Source: a virus
Taxonomy: Duplodnaviria > Heunggongvirae > Uroviricota > Caudoviricetes
Strand: one strand, 5' to 3'
Virus record (IMG/VR): IMGVR_UViG_2529292919_000024
DNA: 36,266 nucleotides
Below are positions 5,582 through 36,266 of the stretch, piece after piece; the stretch's first letter is position 1, and each line of letters opens with the position of its first letter. The position numbers and the translations under genes are program-made. The notes under the pieces were generated by a model. That model was not told the origin of the DNA. It saw only the letters and a program-made list of their open reading frames with translations, and searched no databases.

Positions 5582-6654
5582 TCAATTGTCCCCGGTGTTA
5601 ACAGTTCCGTATTCTCCGAACGCTGGATCTCTGTCGGGAAACGCACTTCAAAATCATCCAGACCGGTAACACCTGCCACCGCACGGATAATACGGGAGGG
5701 GGCAAGTGCGCCGCCCGGCGTCACCTCATTAAAAAACATGGTATTAATGGCGTGGGTAATAGCCTGTTTCAGTTCGGCTGTCTTCGGTGATATATAAATC
5801 CGTGGATTTACCGGCTTTGCCTTTGGCGCAAATACCGTGACATTTACACCATCAGGCTGCCCGACAATCAGGCCGGTGATCGGGTCAGTATGACCGGCGA
5901 TATAATCCGCCACGCGTTCCACGTCTGCCGGTTGTGGAAAAATATTGCTTCGGTTATCCATAACAAACGTCACCCCGACTGTGCCACCGCCTTTCCATGT
6001 CGGAAAACACCAGGCACGGGTAACGCCGCTGACTTCACGCGCCCAGCGAACATAATCAAACTGATTACCGCCGAACGGAGGATACTGGACACGATATTCC
6101 AGCCGTGACAGCAGCTCCGCTGCACTCTCAATATCAGCCCCACCGGAAAACCCTTTTACAGTGATGGCATCGGAAACAACACAGGCAACCGGGGTGATCA
6201 ACGTTAAAAGGGTATTCTCACCGGTATTTCCTGCCTCACCGGCAGCCAGTGCGGTAACGGTAATTTCCGTCGTTCCTGCACGGTCAATCACAATGGCATC
6301 AGCCAGGCTGTAAACCACACCATCAGCACGCTGCCAGCGTGTACCGGCAGGAATGGTGGTCGCTGCCGATGTGGTGACAGTCAGCGGGCCGCTGGCGGCT
6401 GTCGCCTGTTTGCGGCGCACGCCCCAGAACCGGCAGTGCTCCAGCAACTCATCTTCATCTGCTGTCGACGGGATAATCTGCCGTCCAACCCATGAAATAT
6501 GCTCGTGACAACCGGCAGCAAGGCCCGCCTGAGCATAAGCAATGGCACTCAGCGTTTTTTCACGGGCCTGAGGCCAGCTACCCGGCAGGCGCTGTTCAAT
6601 ATTCTGTTCTGTACGGGCAATCAGCGATGATAATGTCGGTGGTGAATAAGCCAT
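5572..6654 (-). CDS. Baseplate J-like wedge protein (Mu gp47-like)
   Basis: 360-aa ORF in the baseplate cluster, assigned by position and size. Confidence 0.75.
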   Translation of the reverse strand: MAYSPPTLSSLIARTEQNIEQRLPGSWPQAREKTLSAIAYAQAGLAAGCHEHISWVGRQIIPSTADEDELLEHCRFWGVRRKQATAASGPLTVTTSAATTIPAGTRWQRADGVVYSLADAIVIDRAGTTEITVTALAAGEAGNTGENTLLTLITPVACVVSDAITVKGFSGGADIESAAELLSRLEYRVQYPPFGGNQFDYVRWAREVSGVTRAWCFPTWKGGGTVGVTFVMDNRSNIFPQPADVERVADYIAGHTDPITGLIVGQPDGVNVTVFAPKAKPVNPRIYISPKTAELKQAITHAINTMFFNEVTPGGALAPSRIIRAVAGVTGLDDFEVRFPTEIQRSENTELLTPGTIEWL

Positions 6655-26110: not shown

Positions 26111-26533
26111 TTATTTCTGGCTTTCAGGTGAGAACAGATCAGGCTGATGACGTCGTGTATGCAGCTTTCTCTGGCGGGCAATAATCTGGTAGATCTGCGG
26201 CTGGGACAGGCGATACTGGCGACGCAGTTCTTCCATGTTACGACCATTGAACTGGCAGTAAAGCAAATCGTCGCGTAACGCGGTCAGGATCGTATCGCCG
26301 CAGGGGATGTAAAACTGCCGCCCGCCCAGAAAACAGGACAGGGCAACGGCCTGTTTACGGGCAAGCTCACGGGGATTGCTGACGTTCTGGCGTTTCAGTT
26401 CGTTTTCCAGAACATCAATCAGATCAACCACCGAACGGGGCCAGCGTGATTCCAGTTCCGGGGCCGGGATGTTATCAATATGTCCGATTAACTGGCGAAT
26501 TGCCGGATCGTGTTCAAATAAATCATGCTGCAT
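26111..26533 (-). CDS. C: Late gene transcription activator C
   Basis: 140 aa, paralogous to Mor in its C-terminal HTH (compare GGRQFYIPCG with GGGQVYIPRG). Last gene of the middle operon, upstream of lys. Confidence 0.9.
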   Translation of the reverse strand: MQHDLFEHDPAIRQLIGHIDNIPAPELESRWPRSVVDLIDVLENELKRQNVSNPRELARKQAVALSCFLGGRQFYIPCGDTILTALRDDLLYCQFNGRNMEELRRQYRLSQPQIYQIIARQRKLHTRRHQPDLFSPESQK

Positions 26534-26674: not shown

Positions 26675-27037
26675 TTACCCGAACAGACGAGCGCGAAAAC
26701 GAAAGGAGAGCCAGAACGTCAGCAATCCGGCCAGCGCCCAGATGACATGCTCAGGACCCGTTTTCAGTTGAGACGTTGCCATCACGGCTAATCCCAGCCC
26801 GGACAGACTCCCCAGCCAGGTCAGAGGCCAGACGAACCGGGCAAAATGTTCAGGCACCCGGCAGCTCATTATCAGCGCATCCAGACAATCAGCGGCAACA
26901 CATAAAGCAACACTGAAAACCGAGGCACAGCAAAACATCAGCGCGCGCCAGCCACAAAACAGACTTATCCACAATAACAGCGCCAGTAATACCACCGATA
27001 AAAAATCAGGCCACTGACGAGCAGAACGCTCAGACAT
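26675..27037 (-). CDS. Small integral membrane protein (3-4 transmembrane helices)
   Basis: 120 aa from the ATG at 27037, which has a GGAGA Shine-Dalgarno sequence; strongly hydrophobic. The ORF-track start at 27088 is an upstream extension. Confidence 0.6.
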   Translation of the reverse strand: MSERSARQWPDFLSVVLLALLLWISLFCGWRALMFCCASVFSVALCVAADCLDALIMSCRVPEHFARFVWPLTWLGSLSGLGLAVMATSQLKTGPEHVIWALAGLLTFWLSFRFRARLFG

Positions 27038-27248
27038 AATGTTTCTCCCTGTAAAGCAGGCAATGATGAAGAATTTCCGGCATATCAACTGACTGCCAGC
27101 CTTTCATGTAATAACTGCCGTGGGTGCCATCATGACCGGTATAGTCGCGGGGCGCAGGCCGTGGCCCACCGGCGACACGGTGCAAAACCTCCTGACGCAG
27201 CCGCTCACGTCTGCCAAGATGAAAGGATGCATTCCAGCCTTTACCCAT
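27030..27248 (-). CDS. Hypothetical protein, first gene of the middle operon
   Basis: 72-aa ORF with a GGGGGAA Shine-Dalgarno sequence 6 nt upstream of the ATG. Confidence 0.5.
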   Translation of the reverse strand: MGKGWNASFHLGRRERLRQEVLHRVAGGPRPAPRDYTGHDGTHGSYYMKGWQSVDMPEILHHCLLYREKHYV

Positions 27249-27294
27249 GATGATTTCCCCCGGTACGGTTATTCATCACAGGATATTGAGGACG

Positions 27295-27318
27295 TAAAAA
27301 AGCCGGATTAACCGGCTT
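27295..27318 (-). terminator. Early-operon intrinsic terminator (t9.2-like), possibly overlapping the middle-promoter activator site
   Basis: On the minus strand, AAGCCGG-TTAAT-CCGGCTT followed by a T run, 7 nt after the mor stop. The dyad could double as a Mor-binding element for the middle promoter. Confidence 0.65.
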
Positions 27319-27324
27319 TACTGT

Positions 27325-27714
27325 TTACAGAAGTGAGGGCTGGTACTGGCGGTATTTCAGCCGTCGCATCCGGCGAATGGCCTTGTAAACCGTATTGAAA
27401 GTGACACCATAACGGGTGGTCAGTTCGCTGACGTTGCGACCGTTAAAATCATTCCAGATACGCAAATCCCGAATCAGCGAGTCCAGAACCTGACCGCGTG
27501 GAATGTAGACCTGACCGCCGCCCAGATGCTTACAGATAGCCACAACAATCTCCAGTGAATGGGCAGGATCAACACCCAGCCGGGACAATTCCCCGCGTAG
27601 TAAATCGTTCAGCTCCGCCAGCAGTGCCGGAAAGCGTGACGTATCCTCTGCGGGATTGTCAAGATGTGCCAGGATGGTGTCATCCTGCAAATCACCAAAT
27701 AAATCTTCCGTCAT
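27325..27714 (-). CDS. mor: Middle operon regulator Mor
   Basis: 129 aa, matching Mu Mor in size and paralogous to C. Last early gene before the terminator. Confidence 0.9.
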   Translation of the reverse strand: MTEDLFGDLQDDTILAHLDNPAEDTSRFPALLAELNDLLRGELSRLGVDPAHSLEIVVAICKHLGGGQVYIPRGQVLDSLIRDLRIWNDFNGRNVSELTTRYGVTFNTVYKAIRRMRRLKYRQYQPSLL

Positions 27715-28262
27715 TGTGCCATCCTCCGCGTCTTTCTGGCATGGGCATAAGCCGCCGTCATGGCATCATAGCCGCGCAGTTCACGACCGGACGGACTGAC
27801 CGGCAATGGAAGCCCGTGACGGGAAAAGGCTTCACGAATACAGCGGATGTGCCACTGCTTGAGTGTTTCGAGGACTGTCAGCAGCGTGTCGCCATGACAC
27901 CACGCCAGTGTGGAAACGCCCTGTCCGCCGTTGCGTTTCGCGGTCAGGCGCTGAACATATTTATCCAGCGCCACATCACCGCCATCGGTAATAAAACCGT
28001 CTTCTGCCATCTGCTGCCAGACTTTGTACACCTTCTCGCGGGGCGTGACATGTTCCTTAAAGCGGCGACGTGGATGTTTATTCAGCTTCTTAAAGCCGCG
28101 TTCTTTCATTGCATCGAGCGTCTGTTCCAGTTGCGTAACCGTCAGCTCGCGGCAACTGGTTTTGCCCGTTTTCTGCATCAGAAAGGCGCGGTAAGTGTCA
28201 TCGTCGAGTTGTAGCTCCCGACGGGCGACATGGATTAATTTAATAAGCGATGTGCGATTCAT
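27711..28262 (-). CDS. gemA: GemA (gene expression modulation protein)
   Basis: 183 aa from the ATG at 28262 (MNRTSLIKLIHVARREL...), with ATGA overlap to mor. The ORF-track extension to 28430 is non-coding. Confidence 0.8.
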   Translation of the reverse strand: MNRTSLIKLIHVARRELQLDDDTYRAFLMQKTGKTSCRELTVTQLEQTLDAMKERGFKKLNKHPRRRFKEHVTPREKVYKVWQQMAEDGFITDGGDVALDKYVQRLTAKRNGGQGVSTLAWCHGDTLLTVLETLKQWHIRCIREAFSRHGLPLPVSPSGRELRGYDAMTAAYAHARKTRRMAQ

Positions 28263-28292
28263 TTGCTCACCTCTCATATTAAGGAATGAGAT

Positions 28293-28709
28293 ATGAAAAT
28301 TGATTATGACGAGATAGCCAGAATATTTGATGTTTTTCTGGAGGCCGACACCGCATTCATTCGACTGGAAGATGTCGGCTGGGATCGTTCTCAGCGGCAC
28401 AGCGACAGCCATCAGAAGCTGGTTTTCCATCTTCTGTTGCTGGTTGAAAATGGTTTTATCAGCAACAGATATCTGGAAACAGGCACCGCAAAAAGCATTG
28501 GTCTCACCCCAACAAGCCTCGGATATTCATATTCAGGCACCAGTGTCAGACTCACACAAGATGGTCATGATTTTGCGAAAGCACTACATCAAAAACCAAT
28601 TCTTGAGCGCATAAAACAGGACCTTGCCGACGCCCCGATGACGCTCGTAACAGACGTCGGCAAACAGTGGTTAACCTCGTTTCTTAAAAAGAAACTCGGG
28701 ATTGAATAG
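28293..28709 (+). CDS. Opposite-strand hypothetical protein, DUF2513-like small winged-helix-type protein (candidate moron/accessory gene)
   Basis: 138-aa ORF with a strong RBS (AAGGAATGAGAT then ATG) and protein-like composition. It is the only plus-strand gene between c and the G segment. It diverges from gemA with 30 bp between the starts and overlaps the upstream early gene's 3' end convergently by 39 nt. Confidence 0.65.
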   Translation: MKIDYDEIARIFDVFLEADTAFIRLEDVGWDRSQRHSDSHQKLVFHLLLLVENGFISNRYLETGTAKSIGLTPTSLGYSYSGTSVRLTQDGHDFAKALHQKPILERIKQDLADAPMTLVTDVGKQWLTSFLKKKLGIE

Positions 28710-28982
28710 TTCCCGGTTCATACGTTGCAGCACATCAAGGGCGGCGACAGCCGCCACTTTATCGTTACCATCAGCAATAGTGCGGAGATTTTCAATAATC
28801 CAGTGAGGACTCAGTGACTCAGCAATAATGCCAAACCGGTACGCCATGACTTCATCAATAGCTTTTTCATGAGACGGCTCATATACAAAATTCACAAAGT
28901 CATGCACTTCTTTTTTCGGCAAACCACCGGCAATCAGCAGGGCGGCAAGCTCTTCTGATTTTGAAAATACACCATTATTCAT
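28671..28982 (-). CDS. Hypothetical early protein (Mu gp15-position)
   Basis: 103 aa from the ATG at 28982, which has an AAGGTGAG Shine-Dalgarno sequence. The ORF-track GTG at 28997 is a short extension. Confidence 0.6.
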   Translation of the reverse strand: MNNGVFSKSEELAALLIAGGLPKKEVHDFVNFVYEPSHEKAIDEVMAYRFGIIAESLSPHWIIENLRTIADGNDKVAAVAALDVLQRMNRELFNPEFLFKKRG

Positions 28983-28983
28983 A

Positions 28984-29166
28984 TCACTCACCTTCACAAT
29001 TCATGCACGCCGTGTCATCGCCCATATCGCAGTGGTTGCATTTCTGCCCGCCACAATGAGGGCACTCTTTCAGATATTCAGGGGATTCATTACCGCAGGT
29101 CGGGCATTCCTGTTTCACCGTGGTAAATTTCCCCAGCCACGAATACGATGTTTCATTGTTTTCCAT
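28984..29166 (-). CDS. Small zinc-ribbon protein
   Basis: 60 aa with CPTC...CPHC...CNHC...CMNC, eight Cys in four CxxC pairs. Confidence 0.6.
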   Translation of the reverse strand: MENNETSYSWLGKFTTVKQECPTCGNESPEYLKECPHCGGQKCNHCDMGDDTACMNCEGE

Positions 29167-29683
29167 TGTTTACCTCCGCCTGTTTTTGCGCCCGGATAAA
29201 TTCGTCAGAAAGGATTTCAGTCATGCGGCCCTGTGCGGGAGTCATCCCTGTCATGACGTAAATCACATCACCAACACGGAACCACCGGAGCGGGCCGAAT
29301 ATTGTTGCGCTGAAATCCAGTCCCAGTGCGGGTAAGAGAGCGTCAGTACGGGCATAAGTGACCGGAATATTCTCCTGCCATATTTTCGCCAGCTCTTTTG
29401 ACTGCTCCCGCAGATGTGCAGGAATGCGCGATGTTCTTGGCCTGCAACTGTTACCTGATGCGGAGCGTTGTACAGTCCACAACTCCGGCGAGAAAGGTCG
29501 CTCATTCCCCGGAAAATTCACGCCATGAAAATGACGCCCACCAATACCTGTGCTGAATACTGACCGGCAACCACAACCCAGAACCTTATCAAGATGGCGG
29601 GCTTCTTCGCGTAGTTTCAGGCAGTCCGCCATAAACTGGTCCCATGCCAGCAGTGCTGCGGGATTTGACGTTTTAAAAAACAT
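29153..29683 (-). CDS. Hypothetical early protein (Mu gp13-position)
   Basis: 176 aa from the ATG at 29683, with AGGAGG upstream and a TGATG junction to the preceding gene. Confidence 0.6.
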   Translation of the reverse strand: MFFKTSNPAALLAWDQFMADCLKLREEARHLDKVLGCGCRSVFSTGIGGRHFHGVNFPGNERPFSPELWTVQRSASGNSCRPRTSRIPAHLREQSKELAKIWQENIPVTYARTDALLPALGLDFSATIFGPLRWFRVGDVIYVMTGMTPAQGRMTEILSDEFIRAQKQAEVNNGKQ

Positions 29684-30222
29684 CACGCCACCTCCTGCAC
29701 CGCTGCGGGAGCCGGAGAACAATCAAGAATGAGATAACGCAGTACATGGTCGGTGATATTCCAGGCGCTTGAACTGCAAATAAACCGCCCCAGCCGGATA
29801 TCGATATAAGCCATCACAAAACGGGGCATTCCCTGTTTGCACATCTCGTCATCCACTTCTGCAACGATGTGAACGGACTCACAGGTCAGCACGCCTGTTG
29901 CAAACTCTTTTGCCAGCGCGGGGATAGTATTACCTTCCACCCAGGGTAATGAGCGACGCCAGTTGCACCACACCGCATCATCAACAGCAGGCTGCTCAGT
30001 TGTGTTTCGTCTTACAGGCGGCGTCGGACGCGGGCGCGGAACGTCATAAAATCCGTTGCATTCGGTGAGCACTCCGGCATCAACCGCATCAACCGCATCA
30101 CGCAGGAAATACACCATTGACGAGGGCAGCATATTCATTTTTTCAGCCAGAACCCCGCAGGTCAGGCGTCCGTAAGCCCGTAATAATGTGCTGACACCAT
30201 TCAGAATTTTTGCATCAACCAT
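29683..30222 (-). CDS. Hypothetical early protein (Mu gp12-position)
   Basis: 179-aa ORF downstream of gam. Confidence 0.6.
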   Translation of the reverse strand: MVDAKILNGVSTLLRAYGRLTCGVLAEKMNMLPSSMVYFLRDAVDAVDAGVLTECNGFYDVPRPRPTPPVRRNTTEQPAVDDAVWCNWRRSLPWVEGNTIPALAKEFATGVLTCESVHIVAEVDDEMCKQGMPRFVMAYIDIRLGRFICSSSAWNITDHVLRYLILDCSPAPAAVQEVA

Positions 30223-30320
30223 GTTTTATTCCTCAGTAATCTGTTTCAGGCGCGAGCAATCCCCTGACGCATCGCGCCATAATTAAAAGAATGTGAATTA
30301 ATTAAATATTAATGGTGGTA

Positions 30321-30845
30321 TTAAATACCGGCTTCCTGTTCAAACGGAATAATGGAAAAATCTTCAATTCCCGATTTAACCGTAATTCCGGCAACACCTG
30401 CGACGGCTTTTGGTTCCAGTAAAATCGCCTCCTTGTTGATTTCCTGCTTCGTGCGAATAAAGCGTTGCAGGCCAAGACGCTCCAGCGTTTCCATCACTGC
30501 ATCCATACCACGAATACTTACTGATGGTGGACGGACCCGCCACGATACATCACCGGTGACAAGATTCGCCGTCTTCACTTTGCCGCCGTTCGTCAGTTCG
30601 TCGCGGTTCGCTTCACACCATCCCTGAACGCCTTTTGAAAGGGTTTCAATATCGGTTTTAATCGGTGCAATCCGGGCCGCAAATTTCTCCGTAATTTCCG
30701 CGATGGCATCATTCATTTCCGTTTCCAGACGTGATGCTTCGCGCTGTAAATCCCCGATGCGTTTAATATCGGTAATCACCGCATCGCGGTTTTGTGGCAC
30801 ATAAGCCGCTGCGGCACTCTTGATACGTTTTGCTGGTTTAGCCAT
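30321..30845 (-). CDS. gam: Gam host-nuclease inhibitor (Ku-like DNA end-binding protein)
   Basis: 174 aa, the size of Mu Gam, with a coiled-coil N-terminus; in the early region at the expected distance from B. Confidence 0.88.
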   Translation of the reverse strand: MAKPAKRIKSAAAAYVPQNRDAVITDIKRIGDLQREASRLETEMNDAIAEITEKFAARIAPIKTDIETLSKGVQGWCEANRDELTNGGKVKTANLVTGDVSWRVRPPSVSIRGMDAVMETLERLGLQRFIRTKQEINKEAILLEPKAVAGVAGITVKSGIEDFSIIPFEQEAGI

Positions 30846-30864
30846 AAATTAAAGCTCCTGTTAA

Positions 30865-31164
30865 TTAATATCCGCTGTATACAATGCTGGATACAGCTCG
30901 ATTGCTTAATTCCATCTTTCGGGCAATGACATGAATATCCAGTCCTTCTTTATAAAGTTCACGACATAAATATTTGTCGTGTTCACTGATTCGGTATACA
31001 CACAATGATATTCCGTGCCTTCTGGCATGTGCCCGGAGGGCGGTTGTGGCGACTTTCAGTTTTTCCGCCATTTCTTCAACGGTCATTTTCCCGACGTTGG
31101 CTTCGATAAATTCCCGGTCTTCGCGTGACCAGCGCTTACGATTACACTTCATGTCAGCCACCAT
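30865..31164 (-). CDS. Small HTH-like DNA-binding protein
   Basis: 99-aa ORF with a TGA-ATG junction to the upstream gene and a helix-turn-helix-like segment (MTVEEMAEKLKVATTALRAHARRHG). Confidence 0.55.
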   Translation of the reverse strand: MVADMKCNRKRWSREDREFIEANVGKMTVEEMAEKLKVATTALRAHARRHGISLCVYRISEHDKYLCRELYKEGLDIHVIARKMELSNRAVSSIVYSGY

Positions 31165-31584
31165 TCAGTACAGCAGAGGCTCGCGCAGTGATGCCGGAAT
31201 ATGCAGCAGCGATAACTGAACCGCTTTCAGGGCAAGCGAGGAATAACAGCAGCGCGCCCAGCCTTTTGCCATTAACCGGTAATCGCGCCAGATACGCTGC
31301 CACATTTCACGGGCTTCAGGGTCTGATGCGCAGATGTATTCCCGGTCCATGACGTACTCCCATAAATCCACGTTGAACGCACCGCCAAATGCAATGGCGC
31401 GGGATATGCTTTCGCCGCAATAACGTGCACAGATGCTGTAATGGTCGAAAGCAATCAGGTAAGTCTTTTCACCACAATCATCAACTTTCCGGGCGCAAAT
31501 AAACTCGCGTAATTCACCACCGTTGTTATTGCGTTCCTGAATTCGGATTAATGCCTGAATTTCATTTCGGGTCTTGACGTTCAT
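31165..31584 (-). CDS. Hypothetical early protein, Cys-containing
   Basis: 139-aa ORF in the early operon. Confidence 0.55.
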   Translation of the reverse strand: MNVKTRNEIQALIRIQERNNNGGELREFICARKVDDCGEKTYLIAFDHYSICARYCGESISRAIAFGGAFNVDLWEYVMDREYICASDPEAREMWQRIWRDYRLMAKGWARCCYSSLALKAVQLSLLHIPASLREPLLY

Positions 31585-31652
31585 TGTCAGCGTTCCTTTG
31601 CGAATTAATGTCTGGCTGTATTCGGGTTATAGCTGAATAATTTCCCCTCAGC

Positions 31653-31874
31653 TTACAGCCCAAGCTCCCTGGCTGATTTCAACAACTCCTCGGTCGCTTT
31701 TTTAATGATTTCAGGAGCCATGCTCTTGATGATGCCTGCCATTACATCATGTGGCCCGGTCTGGTCCTCAGGTGAGGATTCTTCCAGTCGCACATTCATA
31801 TTTACGGCAAAACCTCCATTTTCCTGAAACTCAATATTTCTTGTATTGTTAAATTCAAAGATTACTTTTGCCAT
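31653..31874 (-). CDS. Hypothetical early protein
   Basis: 73-aa acidic ORF. Confidence 0.5.
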   Translation of the reverse strand: MAKVIFEFNNTRNIEFQENGGFAVNMNVRLEESSPEDQTGPHDVMAGIIKSMAPEIIKKATEELLKSARELGL

Positions 31875-31885
31875 TTTGTTTCACC

Positions 31886-32140
31886 TTATTGATTCTGAAT
31901 AACTGCGCTGGCTTTTACCTTCGCGCCTTTTACCTGCTTAAAGAAAACTGCGCTGCACCACGGACAACATGTCAGGGAATCCCGAATTTCCTTTTCGGGT
32001 GAGCATTGCGTCATAATCTGTTCACCGCATCCGGGGCATTTATATGTCGTCAGCGGCACCCCGTGGCACTGACAGTGTTTAACCCATTCAATATATTTTT
32101 CAGCTTTAATACACATCGTTATCTCCAGATAATCTGGCAA
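31886..32140 (-). CDS. Small Cys-rich (zinc-binding) early protein
   Basis: 84 aa with HCQCH...CPGC...CCPWC. Confidence 0.55.
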
Positions 32141-32346
32141 CCATTAAGACGGGCCGTCCATACAGAACGGGCCACCCCGGACTTATGCTCCATAATTCTG
32201 ACCGCGTTTTTTACCAGTTCCACCGGTGGGTAAGTGATTTCAAGAATCGGACGCGCCACGCCGAGATATGATTCATTTACATGACTCCCGCGCGCCTGTA
32301 ACCAATTCTGCGCATCCGTTGCCATTTTTATATTTCGGGCCATCAT
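32119..32346 (-). CDS. kil: Kil-position small protein (host killing / cell-division inhibition in Mu)
   Basis: 75-aa ORF immediately after B, the position and size of Mu kil. The identity rests on synteny only. Confidence 0.5.
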
Positions 32347-32361
32347 AATTTCTTCTCCTTC

Positions 32362-33300
32362 TTAATTACGCAGCAGCGTTGAAATATCAACGTCCAGGTC
32401 TAATTCACGGAAAGCCTGACGCAGATAATCTTCGTTAACACGCTCACCTTTACCGTGAGCCGTCATGGCGGCAAGGCGAAGTGAATGATTCAGAATACGA
32501 AGCGCACCTGGTTTCTGCGCAATCTGCTGTAATAACTCCAGTTCTTTTTCGCCGTTAATCTGCCAGGCATCCGCAATAGCTTTTACATCGGCTTTTTTGG
32601 TTTTATTAATTGCAGTGCGCTTTGCAATACGGGAAAACAGACGGGCAAATTCAACCGTTCTGTTACCCCCCGTCATATTTGAATAAACCCGGTGATTTCC
32701 CATCAGCACAAGGCCAATACGGGTTGATTCCTGTAACAGGCGGAGTTCTTCCAGAACTTCGGCACCAAGATGATCAGCTTCGTCGATGATAACCAGCCCC
32801 TGTGTACCTTCAAGGCGACGTCGCAGGGCGCGGGAGAGCGGCCCTTTACGGCGTGGTGCGTCATTCATTCCCAGCTCAAACGCCAGTTCAGTAAGACATT
32901 CCAGAACGCTGGCACAGGATGGCGTAATGGTGATCATCCAGACATTGTTATTGGTGCGGCGATATTCACGGGCCGCTTCGGTTTTGCCCACACCAGGATT
33001 GCCACATACAACAGCAATACTTTCAGTCAGGCTGGCAAAACGCATACTTGTCCAGATTTGTTTTACCGTCTGCGTTTCCACAAAGCGGGGCGGTTCAGGT
33101 AGTTCTGCAACTGCATGATATTTTTCCAGCCAGCGTTGCAGAATTTGTGAAACACGCTCGTTATCCCCGTTGTACTTATCATTGATAAAACTACTGATAG
33201 TTCCGGTAGAAAGTCCGCTCTCAAGAGCAATTTGTTTAAAGGTGGTTTCTTCATTTTCTACAAGCGTGCGCAGTCCTGCGCGAATATCGGAAATATTCAT
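32362..33300 (-). CDS. B: Transposition target-capture ATPase B
   Basis: 312 aa with an N-terminal HTH and a Walker A motif (GNPGVGKT); directly after A. Confidence 0.93.
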   Translation of the reverse strand: MNISDIRAGLRTLVENEETTFKQIALESGLSTGTISSFINDKYNGDNERVSQILQRWLEKYHAVAELPEPPRFVETQTVKQIWTSMRFASLTESIAVVCGNPGVGKTEAAREYRRTNNNVWMITITPSCASVLECLTELAFELGMNDAPRRKGPLSRALRRRLEGTQGLVIIDEADHLGAEVLEELRLLQESTRIGLVLMGNHRVYSNMTGGNRTVEFARLFSRIAKRTAINKTKKADVKAIADAWQINGEKELELLQQIAQKPGALRILNHSLRLAAMTAHGKGERVNEDYLRQAFRELDLDVDISTLLRN

Positions 33301-33338: not shown

Positions 33339-35327
33339 TTAAATGGCTTTTTTACGTCTGTTCTGTTCCAGAATATCCAGCGAATGATTCAGATATTCAT
33401 CACGCTCAGTTTCGTATTCATCATCACGCTCCTGATTCTTCACCCGTTCCGTATTACCGGAAGGCCGGAAAATACCAACAATTCGTGATTCTGGTGCTGC
33501 TGGTTCGGCTATCTGCGGCAGCAGTTCAGCAACTTCCAGCGCGTCCATTTGTTTCTGCGCCTTAATGGCTGCTTTAGTTGCAGATTTCAGTTGTTTCTGG
33601 CGGCGGCGATATTCACGGCCTGCCGCAGCATCATTAAATGCAACAGGTGCCAGACATTCCGCTTCACAGATAAACCGACCGTCCAGGGTGTAACAATAAA
33701 CCGTGCTGTGTAGCTGCTGCGGATCAAACCTGACCACAACTTTTTTCACGCCGGCATTCATTAATGCCATGTTGTAATAAACGTTTTTCGCGCCTTTAAG
33801 GGAGCCGCCAACTTTAAGCGTAAACTCGCCTTTGCGTGAAACGTTCACCGCCTCGGCAGGCAGTAACAGCATCCGTTTTTGTTCTTCGGTTGGCTTACGC
33901 ACAATCGTTCTGGCGTATTCACGCTCGAAAACATCATCAAACGAGAGTTTGCCCCCGCACATTTCTGTTTCACGGCCTGTTCTGGCATTGAACATCGCCA
34001 CACCTTCGGCAAGGGTTTTCAGAAACAGCTCTGCATCAACAGCGCGGTTGCCATAGTTATCAGGTTTTGCCTGCGGATTTGGCCCCGTATATGCGCCAGC
34101 CAGTGCCGGATGCTTATCAACGTATTCCTCAAGCCCACCAACACCGAAAGCACGTTCAACAGGTTTTGCCTGGCCCCAGCCTTTACCGGCAACAACGCTT
34201 GTCCAGTGCATTTTCGCACCCATCAGTAAAAACAATCCCTTTGGATCGTCTTCTTTCACCTTAAAGCGGTAGCGATTGGGCGCGCCTCCCGTCAGCCATT
34301 TATTCGCAGCACCACGGGTGTTATCAATGGTGATGTGAAAATCCTCCGGGATACCGTAGCGAGTCACAACATCCATGAACGAGAGGCGAATTGAATCAAT
34401 GTTCTCGCTCACATCGCAGCGCCAGCCCAGAATTTTTCGGGTTTTCACATCCTGCCAGAACCATGTTTTCGGGCGGATCACATCACCGTTAAACCAGCGT
34501 ACAAAGACGTTATGCAGATAACCGTCGCCGTTGATCCACTGCAAGGCGTCCAGGTGTTCCACAGTTCGCTGCTGTGCCGGTATCAGATGCATCAGTGCAT
34601 GTTCACCTTCACGACAGGCAACAACCATTGCCTCGTCCAGTTGCTGAATCCGGCGAAAGGCCGTGGCACGGGAGGGAATACTCCAGCCATGCTCGCGGGC
34701 TGCCAGTTCCAGACGCTCATAACATTTGCGGAAGGCGGGTTTTTCCGGTCGCAGATAATCTGCAATCAGAAACTGCCAGGCATCCTCGTCAAATTCACTT
34801 TTGTGAACATTGCGACGGGATGCACCACGTCCATCAACAAGTGCAGCCGCCCAGTCAGGCTTCGCAAACTTCTGTACCTGGTAATACTTGTCCCGCAAAG
34901 TGGATGCGCTGATCTGGTAATGCCCTGCAACGGTCGCAAAAGCCGTTTTCGTTGAAATCCCCTGGTTCAGCATTTCGTCTGCAGCCTGAACCGCAGGCAA
35001 CCATTTTTCAGCAAGTCTGCGCTGGGAATCGCTGGCTTTATCCCATTTGCTCCACAGCACCTCACGATCATAATCATGGGCTTCCAGCGTGGGGCGGGCG
35101 ATTTCAAAACGGCCCAGGCTTGTTTCAATTCTCCCTTGTTGCAACAGAATTTCAGCACGTAATGCGACAGGGAATGATTTGATATTGAATTCAAATGATA
35201 CACCTTTAGTCCCTGCAACCTGCCTGAACTCCCAGCCTTCTCTTTGTGCCTTACGTGTAATGTTAGTGGCTTGCTTTGGTAAACCTGCCAAACCGAGCAA
35301 CTCTTTTGCTGTATACCATTCTTTCAT
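33339..35327 (-). CDS. A: DDE transposase A
   Basis: 662 aa. From about residue 60 it matches MuA as recalled ([15 protein letters not shown]...) and ends ...NRRKKAI. The N-terminal roughly 60 aa differ from Mu, as described for D108. Confidence 0.95.
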
Positions 35328-35334
35328 AGCGCAC

Positions 35335-35556
35335 CTAGTATCGAGACGGCCAAATATCTTGCGGTGTCATTCCCAGTGCATCTGCAATGATTTTCTCCGC
35401 TTTCGGATATCTCTTATCCAAAGCATTTTTTAATGTTGAAGACGAAAGATGATTAGATCTTCCCAATTCAGCTAGTGACATATTGCGTTTTCGTAGCTCT
35501 GCAACGATGTCAGCTCTGTGCCAATCTTGGCGGTTAGTTCTTTTATTCATATGCAT
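35335..35556 (-). CDS. ner: Ner early-region repressor (Cro-like)
   Basis: 73-aa HTH protein, the size of D108 Ner (Mu Ner is 75 aa), directly upstream of A. Confidence 0.88.
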
Positions 35557-35741
35557 TTCATGTAATCCTTTCAGATTCCCCCGTGAGCTACGCTATAAAG
35601 TAGCTCACGGCATATCGTGCAATGTAGTGTGGAATCACTTTCAAATCAATAGTGATTTGAAAGGATTTGCCATGATTTCATATAACAGCATGATTTTTAT
35701 ATGAATTTATTTTGTCTCTATTGAAATCACTAGGATTTTAA
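35557..35741. promoter_or_regulatory. Immunity/operator region between ner and c (divergent Pe and Pc, Ner and repressor operators)
   Basis: A perfect 11-bp inverted repeat CCGTGAGCTAC with an 8-bp AT spacer lies at 35581..35610. A second dyad, CTTTCAAATCA-ATAG-TGATTTGAAAG, lies at 35638..35663. There are also AT-rich -10/-35-like hexamers on both strands. Confidence 0.7.
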
Positions 35742-36266
35742 ATGATGTCTTTTGAAATCAAAGAATGGTTTAATGCGAAAGAGCTGGAAGGGATGCCTGG
35801 TGTACCAAAGTTGGCGACTAACATTACCAGGAAAGCTGTGGCGGAAGATTGGGTAAAACGTCAGCGTCACGGTGGGAAAGGTGTCGCTTATGAGTATCAC
35901 ATCAACAGTCTGCCAGAAGAAACACGCAGGGCCATTAAAGGAGCCTCACTTTCTGATAAACCAGTGCATACATCAATCGCCCATACAGTTGATGAGAGGC
36001 TAATTTATGCAATGAGCTTCTTAACACCAGATGAGCAGGCCGCAGCTGTGGAGATCATTCGTGTGGCAGGGATTAAAGGACTTATGCCTACAATTGTCAG
36101 TAAAGATAAGGCATTAGAGGCATTAGGGATTACTGTGGAGCAACAGAAAACCCTGCAAACTCTTCAGGCATTACCACCGGAAAAAGTGAGAGAGATTTTG
36201 TCTCAGTATGAAGGCAAAGAACATAATTTCCCTGTAAGAGAAAACGATGTAAAGAAAGCTGTATAA
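35742..36266 (+). CDS. c: Lysogeny repressor c (D108-type)
   Basis: 174-aa ORF divergent from ner. Its N-terminal DNA-binding domain is homologous to the transposase N-terminus (compare [18 protein letters not shown] with [18 protein letters not shown]). Ends ...KKAV. Confidence 0.85.
   Translation: MMSFEIKEWFNAKELEGMPGVPKLATNITRKAVAEDWVKRQRHGGKGVAYEYHINSLPEETRRAIKGASLSDKPVHTSIAHTVDERLIYAMSFLTPDEQAAAVEIIRVAGIKGLMPTIVSKDKALEALGITVEQQKTLQTLQALPPEKVREILSQYEGKEHNFPVRENDVKKAV

Follow-up and report, generated by a model that had tools for sequence, protein, structure and literature searches.

Positions 28263-32346 of a 36,266-nucleotide (nt) stretch of viral DNA (IMG/VR record IMGVR_UViG_2529292919_000024), which as a whole is called the window here, very probably correspond to the semi-essential early (SE, also SEE) region of a Mu-family transposable prophage. 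Such a region is already named and described for Mu, and the observation made here is a correct rediscovery of that region and not a new system. A sequence-only reading of the window had described the interval as an early accessory region composed mostly of proteins with no assigned function, which was confirmed by family searches. The merit of a follow-up lies in the slot for an opposite-strand gene beside gemA and in the cassette that occupies it here, namely a DUF2513-like gene and a 103-amino-acid (aa) open reading frame (ORF).

Identity of the interval and of the prophage

Analysis of the window indicated that its 36.3 kb comprise nearly all of a Mu-family transposable prophage, reversed in orientation, in which MuA, MuB, Gam, GemA, Mor and C were recognised by Pfam above threshold. 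The interval lies between A/B and gemA-mor and shares its strand with A and B, and orthologues of kil and gam are present, each 100% identical to the Mu protein. The gene order is equal to that in the annotated records of Mu (kil, gp6-gp9, gam, gp11-gp15, gemA, mor) and of the Yersinia phage vB_YpM_5. Megablast searches aligned 28973-32346 at 94-97% identity to Mu, D108, SfMu and Yersinia vB_YpM phages. All 11 ORFs of the interval matched PHROG families with E values from 2.6e-31 to 1.6e-104, and the gene content is therefore real, far beyond chance.

In Mu, the SE region comprises 14 ORFs, most of them without a function, and its deletion raises host viability after infection with MuBam from about 20% to 100% (PMC3325207). 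Since the deletion relieves host killing, the region, or some part of it, has an effect on the host. The sequence-only reading had named a lack of any deletion phenotype as the outcome that would speak against its view of the small proteins, and the viability data from Mu are the opposite of such an outcome.

The interval is flanked on the minus strand by B (32362-33300), which encodes the 312-aa transposition ATPase with Pfam Phage-MuB_C and AAA_22, and on the other side by gemA (27711-28262; 183 aa, Pfam GemA 108 bits, 96% identical to Mu) and mor (27325-27714; 129 aa, the middle-operon activator, Pfam Mor 114 bits, 99% identical to Mu). Genes A (33339-35327) and C (26111-26533), both above the Pfam threshold, are also encoded on the minus strand. 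The immunity region (35335-36266) carries the repressor gene c on the plus strand and ner on the minus strand, and the c/ner segment showed 99% identity to D108 and no megablast match to Mu. Megablast of 28263-28758 against 50,697 phage records gave zero matches. Because the immunity region is of the D108 type, with no Mu match, while the SE region is of the Mu/vB_YpM type, the prophage is best described, by sequence similarity, as a mosaic of these two parts and a cassette that occurs in prophages only.

The minus-strand genes and their cysteine-rich products

The segment 28671-32346 is filled by ten minus-strand genes at about 95% coding density, and a single plus-strand gene is present besides. 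The successive gaps from kil to the 103-aa ORF are 2, 11, 68, 0, 19, 98, -1, -14 and 1 nt. The junctions read TGATG at gp11/gp12, TGAATG at gp8/gp9 and ATGA at gemA/mor, and a GGAG-like Shine-Dalgarno site precedes each gene but gp9, whose start abuts the gp8 stop. This direct check of spacing and sites bore out the TGATG/ATGA junctions, with a Shine-Dalgarno sequence before most ORFs, that had been noticed earlier. The earlier count of about 12 tightly coupled small ORFs is correct as a number when gemA and the plus-strand ORF are included, but the coupling does not extend to all of them; 28293-28709 stands outside the coupled string, as it lies on the plus strand and converges on the 103-aa ORF. 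Hydrophobic segments were found in none of the proteins encoded by the interval ORFs, and an Rfam scan of 27000-33000 returned chance-level matches only.

A survey of 65 IMG/VR Mu-like loci with both B and gemA, in which contigs are redundant and counts refer to contigs and not to lineages, revealed SE regions of 0.66-6.4 kb with a median of 3.5 kb. The genes most often present were gam (60 of the 65 loci), kil (57), gp9 (53) and gp11 (44), followed by gp7 (36), gp8 (33), the 103-aa ORF (24), gp13 (23), gp14 (23), gp6 (20) and gp12 (18). The SE gene content is thus mosaic among Mu-like phages; kil, gam, gp9 and gp11 are the conserved members, and the putative zinc proteins gp6 and gp13 belong to the variable fraction.

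Two cysteine-rich proteins had been proposed as zinc-binding candidates from the sequence, and both are credible. The first, gp6 (31886-32116, minus strand; PHROG 3786, E 1.1e-40), is 100% identical to Mu gp6 and is annotated in Mu as 76 aa from an ATG; the 84-aa version described earlier is gp6 extended to an upstream TTG. Alignment of 10 distinct homologues, including a divergent one from Kluyvera, revealed that CPxC (positions 26-29) and CPWC (positions 51-54; CPWC or CPFC) are invariant in all 10, which upholds the CPGC and CPWC pairs of the earlier description; its HCQCH motif is not conserved and reads RVQNN in near relatives. Comparisons of gp6 with curated zinc-ribbon families stayed below threshold (TIGR02605, 18 bits against 31.3; Zn_ribbon_ACC, 15 bits against 24.5), and the best match of a PDB sequence search had an E value of at least 0.068. 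The conserved cysteine pairs make gp6 a credible C4 zinc-ribbon candidate. In E. coli 22KM0354 (locus L003, 7667-7910), whose prophage is otherwise identical, the RefSeq annotation omits gp6, and a 100%-identical frame was found there by tblastn.

The second protein, gp13 (28984-29166, minus strand; 60 aa, 96.7% identical to Mu), overlaps the 3' end of gp12 by 14 nt and carries four CxxC pairs, whose eight cysteines (8/8) are invariant in 19 distinct homologues. Its module of about 45 residues occurs either as a protein of 46-60 aa or as the C-terminal domain of proteins of 231-252 aa, and the N-terminal part of these fusion proteins is unrelated to gp12. On this evidence gp13 is probably a portable module, with four CxxC pairs and two putative zinc sites. 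The fusions (PHROG 6418; loci L006, 2234-2929, L021 and L024) occur in some Mu-like prophages, where they take the place of both gp12 and gp13; their N-terminal domain, some 175 aa long, is unrelated. The Pfam DnaJ Cys-rich domain, which has four CxxCxGxG repeats, was tried as an identity for gp13, and the likeness is no more than a resemblance; the CxxC spacing of gp13 is much tighter and the score of 19.2 bits lies under the cut-off of 32.7.

The first gene after B is kil (32119-32346, minus strand), which encodes a 75-aa protein 100% identical to Mu Kil and assigned to PHROG 2743, 'Kil protein for bacterial septation inhibition' (E 2.8e-43); its Shine-Dalgarno sequence is GAAGGAGA. The gp7-like gene (31653-31874, minus strand) encodes a truncated protein of 73 aa that matches PHROG 2230 over profile positions 1-73 of 89. 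Its codon 74 is TAA (31653-31655), where the 89-aa allele of E. coli 22KM0354, apart from this 98.6% identical, has GAA, and the premature stop accounts for the 68-nt untranslated gap before gp8. This gp7-like protein showed no BLAST match to Mu gp7 and 40% identity to the vB_YpM_5 allele. The products of gp8 (31165-31584, minus strand; 139 aa, PHROG 3690, E 1.3e-95, 94% identical to Mu), gp11 (29683-30222, minus strand; 179 aa, 95.5% identical to Mu) and gp12 (29153-29683, minus strand; 176 aa, PHROG 2314, E 7e-80, 96% identical to Mu) are proteins of unknown function. The gp12 start overlaps the gp11 stop, and a Salmonella homologue of gp12 bears Pfam Phage_Mu_Gp12. The gp9 gene (30865-31164, minus strand) encodes 99 aa, 99% identical to Mu, and belongs to PHROG 323, 'transcriptional regulator, D5-like' (E 6.9e-29); weak matches to helix-turn-helix (HTH) and sigma-70 region-4-like domains are in agreement with a predicted HTH regulator.

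The gam gene (30321-30845, minus strand) encodes a 174-aa protein, 100% identical to Mu Gam and matching Pfam Phage_Mu_Gam at 144 bits. Gam protects linear DNA from RecBCD, and GemA is labelled "of unknown function" in the same source (PMC8705779). The statement of the sequence-only reading that only Gam and GemA have known roles does not agree with these data: GemA has to be removed from such a list, Kil has a killing and septation phenotype (PHROG 2743), and gp9 is a predicted HTH regulator. The spacer between gam and gp11 (30223-30320, minus strand) is AT-rich, has 98 nt, a length equal to that in Mu, and ends in a stable GC hairpin, GGCGCGAUGCGUCAGGGGAUUGCUCGCGCC; its predicted RNA fold has -26.2 kcal/mol (z = -2.3). 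Without a T-run behind it, the hairpin does not qualify as a canonical terminator; it might be an element of RNA processing or stability.

The last minus-strand gene of the string is the 103-aa ORF (28671-28982; PHROG 1988, E 5.1e-52), which shares 88% aa identity with a vB_YpM_5 protein, is also found in SfMu and has no match in Mu. A homologue search with this ORF gave 9 matches only, all of them close, and comparison with the allele of E. coli SE11 yielded a ratio of non-synonymous to synonymous substitution rates (dN/dS) of 0.23.

Searches for functions gave little beyond these assignments. Scans of the ten non-Gam ORFs with Pfam, NCBIfam and PADLOC returned nothing above threshold for gp6, gp7, gp8, gp12, gp13 and the 103-aa ORF, whose matches were all sub-threshold, and PDB sequence searches with gp6, gp8, gp9, gp11, gp12, gp13 and the 103-aa ORF returned no significant match. 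The PADLOC scan of ten proteins (Gam left out), which covers models of defence and not of anti-defence systems, gave none but a chance-level match of gp9 (E 0.0099). The Pfam, NCBIfam and PDB searches produced no match to a characterised anti-defence inhibitor, and a literature search on anti-defence by Mu early genes found nothing relevant.

These results bear on the idea that dedicated anti-defence factors, directed against restriction, RecBCD or other immunity, make up the majority of the uncharacterised small proteins and include in particular gp6 and gp13, the putative zinc binders. The genes are early, small and located in a variable accessory region, the gp13 module is joined to differing N-terminal domains as for a swapped adaptor, and RecBCD is indeed neutralised by Gam (PMC8705779), a product of this operon. 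The searches speak neither for nor against an anti-defence role, and we regard the idea as rather unlikely, given that homology to characterised proteins is nil in Pfam, NCBIfam and PDB, that PADLOC was empty, that no ORF was tied to any defence system in these searches, and that the retention of kil, gp9 and gp11 across divergent hosts fits housekeeping phage roles equally well.

A different and tentative possibility is that the ORFs without a function encode mainly nucleic-acid-binding regulators of Mu development, acting on replication efficiency, immunity control or gemA/mor timing, and not host-directed effectors. The HTH-like gp9 and the nature of the weak gp6 matches, which are zinc-ribbon RNA- or DNA-binding proteins, are consistent with such roles, and a small zinc-finger protein that activates translation is already known from Mu, namely Com. 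Classical Mu genetics mapped the phenotypes arm, cim and lig/gem to the SE region. Every match of gp6 and gp13 lies under the family thresholds, however, and the relief of host killing by the SE deletion argues that part of the region is host-directed.

The opposite-strand gene beside gemA

The single plus-strand gene of the interval (28293-28709) encodes a 138-aa DUF2513-like winged-helix protein and occupies the slot of Mu gp14/gp15. It converges on the 103-aa ORF with an overlap of 39 nt, and its start lies 30 nt from that of gemA, from which it diverges. A spurious antisense shadow was considered and ruled out by codon-position analysis against the allele of E. coli SE11: all seven nucleotide differences (7/7) fall on third positions of the plus-strand frame, and six are synonymous and one is non-synonymous (dN/dS 0.046). 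The ORF is a real gene under strong purifying selection.

The AlphaFold2 model of the protein reached a predicted local distance difference test score (pLDDT) of 90.7 and has a winged-helix fold. A BFVD structure search with this model found uncharacterised viral proteins only, none at E <= 0.001. The protein is named DUF2513 by the Prokaryotic Genome Annotation Pipeline (PGAP). Against Pfam DUF2513 (PF10711) it scored 15.9 bits with a cut-off of 29.6, and 21 of the 27 family members matched DUF2513 at E <= 0.01 (best 8.4e-7); one relative matches YjcQ too. By profile similarity, the protein is assigned to a peripheral DUF2513 subfamily. It has 29 homologues of 30-99% identity, and a profile search with the family collected 458 clusters, nearly all of them stand-alone proteins of 130-145 aa, with no informative domain fusions. 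No papers on DUF2513 came up in a literature search. Homology of the 138-aa protein to Mu gp15, and of the 103-aa ORF to Mu gp14, was also considered and was rejected on sequence comparison.

The slot was surveyed in 79 gemA-anchored viral contigs. Directly upstream of gemA, a DUF2513-like gene was present in 12 of the 79 and a member of the gp15 family in about 23; an opposite-strand gene stood beside gemA in 35 of these Mu-like contigs, and the remainder had no recognisable one. Proteins of the gp15 family have 79-119 aa and the motif form YDVAGY..A..L..LLV.K..IT, and are unrelated to the DUF2513-like family. In E. coli and Salmonella Mu-like prophages that differ in their other SE genes, the DUF2513-like homologue keeps both its slot and its orientation. 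The segment 28200-29000 is covered to at least 80% in 5 of 5,426 complete E. coli genomes.

Homologues were also found in other surroundings. In Kluyvera (locus L016), the pair of DUF2513-like gene and 103-aa ORF is located on the other side of gemA, between gemA and a Mor/C-like gene, and in non-Mu, myovirus-type prophages (loci L051, L052 and L056) the convergent pair stands between baseplate and tail genes. A lambdoid-type prophage (IMG/VR 2706794642_000003; locus L035, 6088-9149) carries a 52%-identical DUF2513-like gene directly after a cI-type repressor gene (HTH and S24 peptidase), and two neighbouring genes on the opposite strand match the PADLOC candidate PDC-M18 (A, E 6e-39; B, E 3e-24). 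One unassigned ORF separates a homologue in Alcanivorax from a NucS-like protein downstream of it, and this protein gave matches to PDC-S02 and PDC-S11, which are likewise PADLOC candidates. In the lambdoid-type and Alcanivorax loci the winged-helix gene occurs without the 103-aa ORF. These contexts suggest that the winged-helix gene is a portable piece of cargo oriented like a repressor gene.

What such cargo would do may be considered in the light of its position. The gene is possibly, though with less than even probability, a lysogen-expressed 'moron' whose product acts on other phages, by exclusion or repression, or modulates host genes, and that moves as a mobile cassette alone or with the 103-aa ORF. 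Its orientation is that of the repressor gene c, and it is under strong purifying selection; the slot beside gemA holds either a DUF2513-like gene or a member of the unrelated gp15 family, with an opposite-strand gene in 35 of the 79 contigs; the pair recurs downstream of gemA in Kluyvera and in non-Mu tail/baseplate clusters; and homologues lie near a cI-type repressor with PDC-M18 and, in Alcanivorax, near the PDC-S02/PDC-S11 protein. Several results do not favour this explanation. The promoter search was negative, the associations with defence candidates come from two loci, the 138-aa protein itself has no PADLOC match, and the family is almost always stand-alone with no informative fusions. 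A terminator-like hairpin (28740-28755) downstream of the gene may be incidental, as it coincides with the conserved AAVAAL motif of the 103-aa protein; because it overlaps this coding motif of the other strand, it is not independent evidence of a terminator. The wider proposal, that the opposite-strand position by gemA is a dedicated cargo slot whose occupants would be expressed in the lysogen and take part in superinfection exclusion, defence or immunity control, is speculative and in our judgement improbable.

The short distance between the 138-aa gene and gemA raises another explanation, that of a Mu-specific regulator acting at the 30-bp divergent region to control gemA-mor and the early-to-middle switch. 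The two starts are 30 nt apart, a 6-bp palindrome between the genes overlaps both Shine-Dalgarno sites, and the gene is immediately beside gemA in most Mu-like loci. Close homologues sit in contexts without gemA, the Kluyvera gene is on the other side of gemA, and the slot of Mu holds an unrelated protein, all of which make such a regulator very unlikely.

Between gemA and the opposite-strand gene, Mu (locus L001, ~1940-1975) and a Salmonella prophage (locus L008, ~5945-5975) carry a GC-rich hairpin, GGCGGTG...CACCGCC. Read on the early-operon strand, the hairpin of the Salmonella type is followed by TCTTTTTTT just ahead of the gemA ribosome-binding site, and since TCTTTTTTT comes directly after it, this hairpin looks like an intrinsic terminator before gemA-mor. 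The hairpin segment of about 40 bp is absent from the window (28263-28292) and from the E. coli type represented by locus L007.

Proposed mechanism and comparison with known systems

In the mechanism that we propose, the minus-strand genes would form the distal part of the early operon. The early promoter Pe would give rise to a single polycistronic RNA with coupled translation, made within minutes of the onset of lytic growth. Host division is blocked by Kil, which is also lethal to the host, Gam shields double-stranded DNA ends from RecBCD by capping them, and Mor turns on middle transcription; Mu still grows when its SE region is deleted, yet this region accounts for host killing. The uncharacterised members would be accessory proteins, soluble and located in the cytoplasm, whose binding partners are macromolecules of the host or the phage, with gp9 as a putative HTH protein, gp6 as a candidate C4 zinc ribbon and gp13 as a presumed portable four-CxxC module. 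The plus-strand gene would be a separate unit encoding a DNA-binding winged-helix protein, most likely cargo with its own expression and most likely not part of the early programme.

Several points weigh against this account of the region. Transcription from Pe and translational coupling are here extrapolated from Mu biology and from gene spacing. No tool returned a molecular target for gp6, gp7, gp8, gp11, gp12, gp13 or the 103-aa ORF. At least one SE member may be decaying, as gp7 carries a premature stop. A sigma-70 consensus promoter upstream of the plus-strand gene was absent in all 18 contexts (18/18), and the independent expression of that gene is thus putative.

Sequence and annotation of the Mu SE region have been available for decades, and a function is still missing for most of its small proteins. 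The present analysis adds a parts list with the truly conserved cysteines, the portable, putatively zinc-binding gp13 module and the broken gp7, as well as a ranking of conserved and variable SE genes and the opposite-strand slot by gemA. If this slot holds lysogen-expressed cargo, it would offer a defined entry point to prophage accessory functions in transposable phages and would represent a previously unrecognised accessory hotspot of these phages.

Comparison with phage Mu (NC_000929, SE region at ~4.3-8.8 kb) showed that the position from B to gemA/mor, the strand logic and the gene order are equal. Kil, gp6 and Gam are 100% identical and gp8, gp9, gp11, gp12 and gp13 are 94-99% identical, while the gp7 allele of the window is unrelated by BLAST and truncated. 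In place of Mu gp14 (minus strand) and the 88-aa gp15 of the opposite strand, the window has the 103-aa ORF and the 138-aa gene, and it lacks the GC hairpin found between Mu gp15 and gemA.

D108, nearly identical to the window in c/ner as given above, SfMu and vB_YpM_5/6 keep gp14 and gp15 after the 103-aa ORF; none of them has the DUF2513-like gene, and their similarity to the window stops at 28758. In vB_YpM_5, gp12 and gp13 are 100% identical to those of the window, and the 103-aa ORF of vB_YpM_5/SfMu has 88% aa identity. The closest counterparts over 28200-29000 are the E. coli prophages of 22KM0354 (100%), O126:H45 MIN10 (99.9%) and SE11 (95%), which show the same layout of gemA, DUF2513-like gene and 103-aa ORF; the other SE genes vary among the cassette-bearing prophages of E. 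coli and Salmonella, and Salmonella Mu-like prophages carry a 48%-identical protein in the gemA slot. Prophage proteins of Pfam DUF2513/YjcQ share the winged-helix fold, and no member has a described function. The early block of Pseudomonas transposable phages and the exo-xis and nin regions of lambda likewise contain small, variable early genes, a few of which act on the host; with these the SE region of the window is comparable by analogy only.

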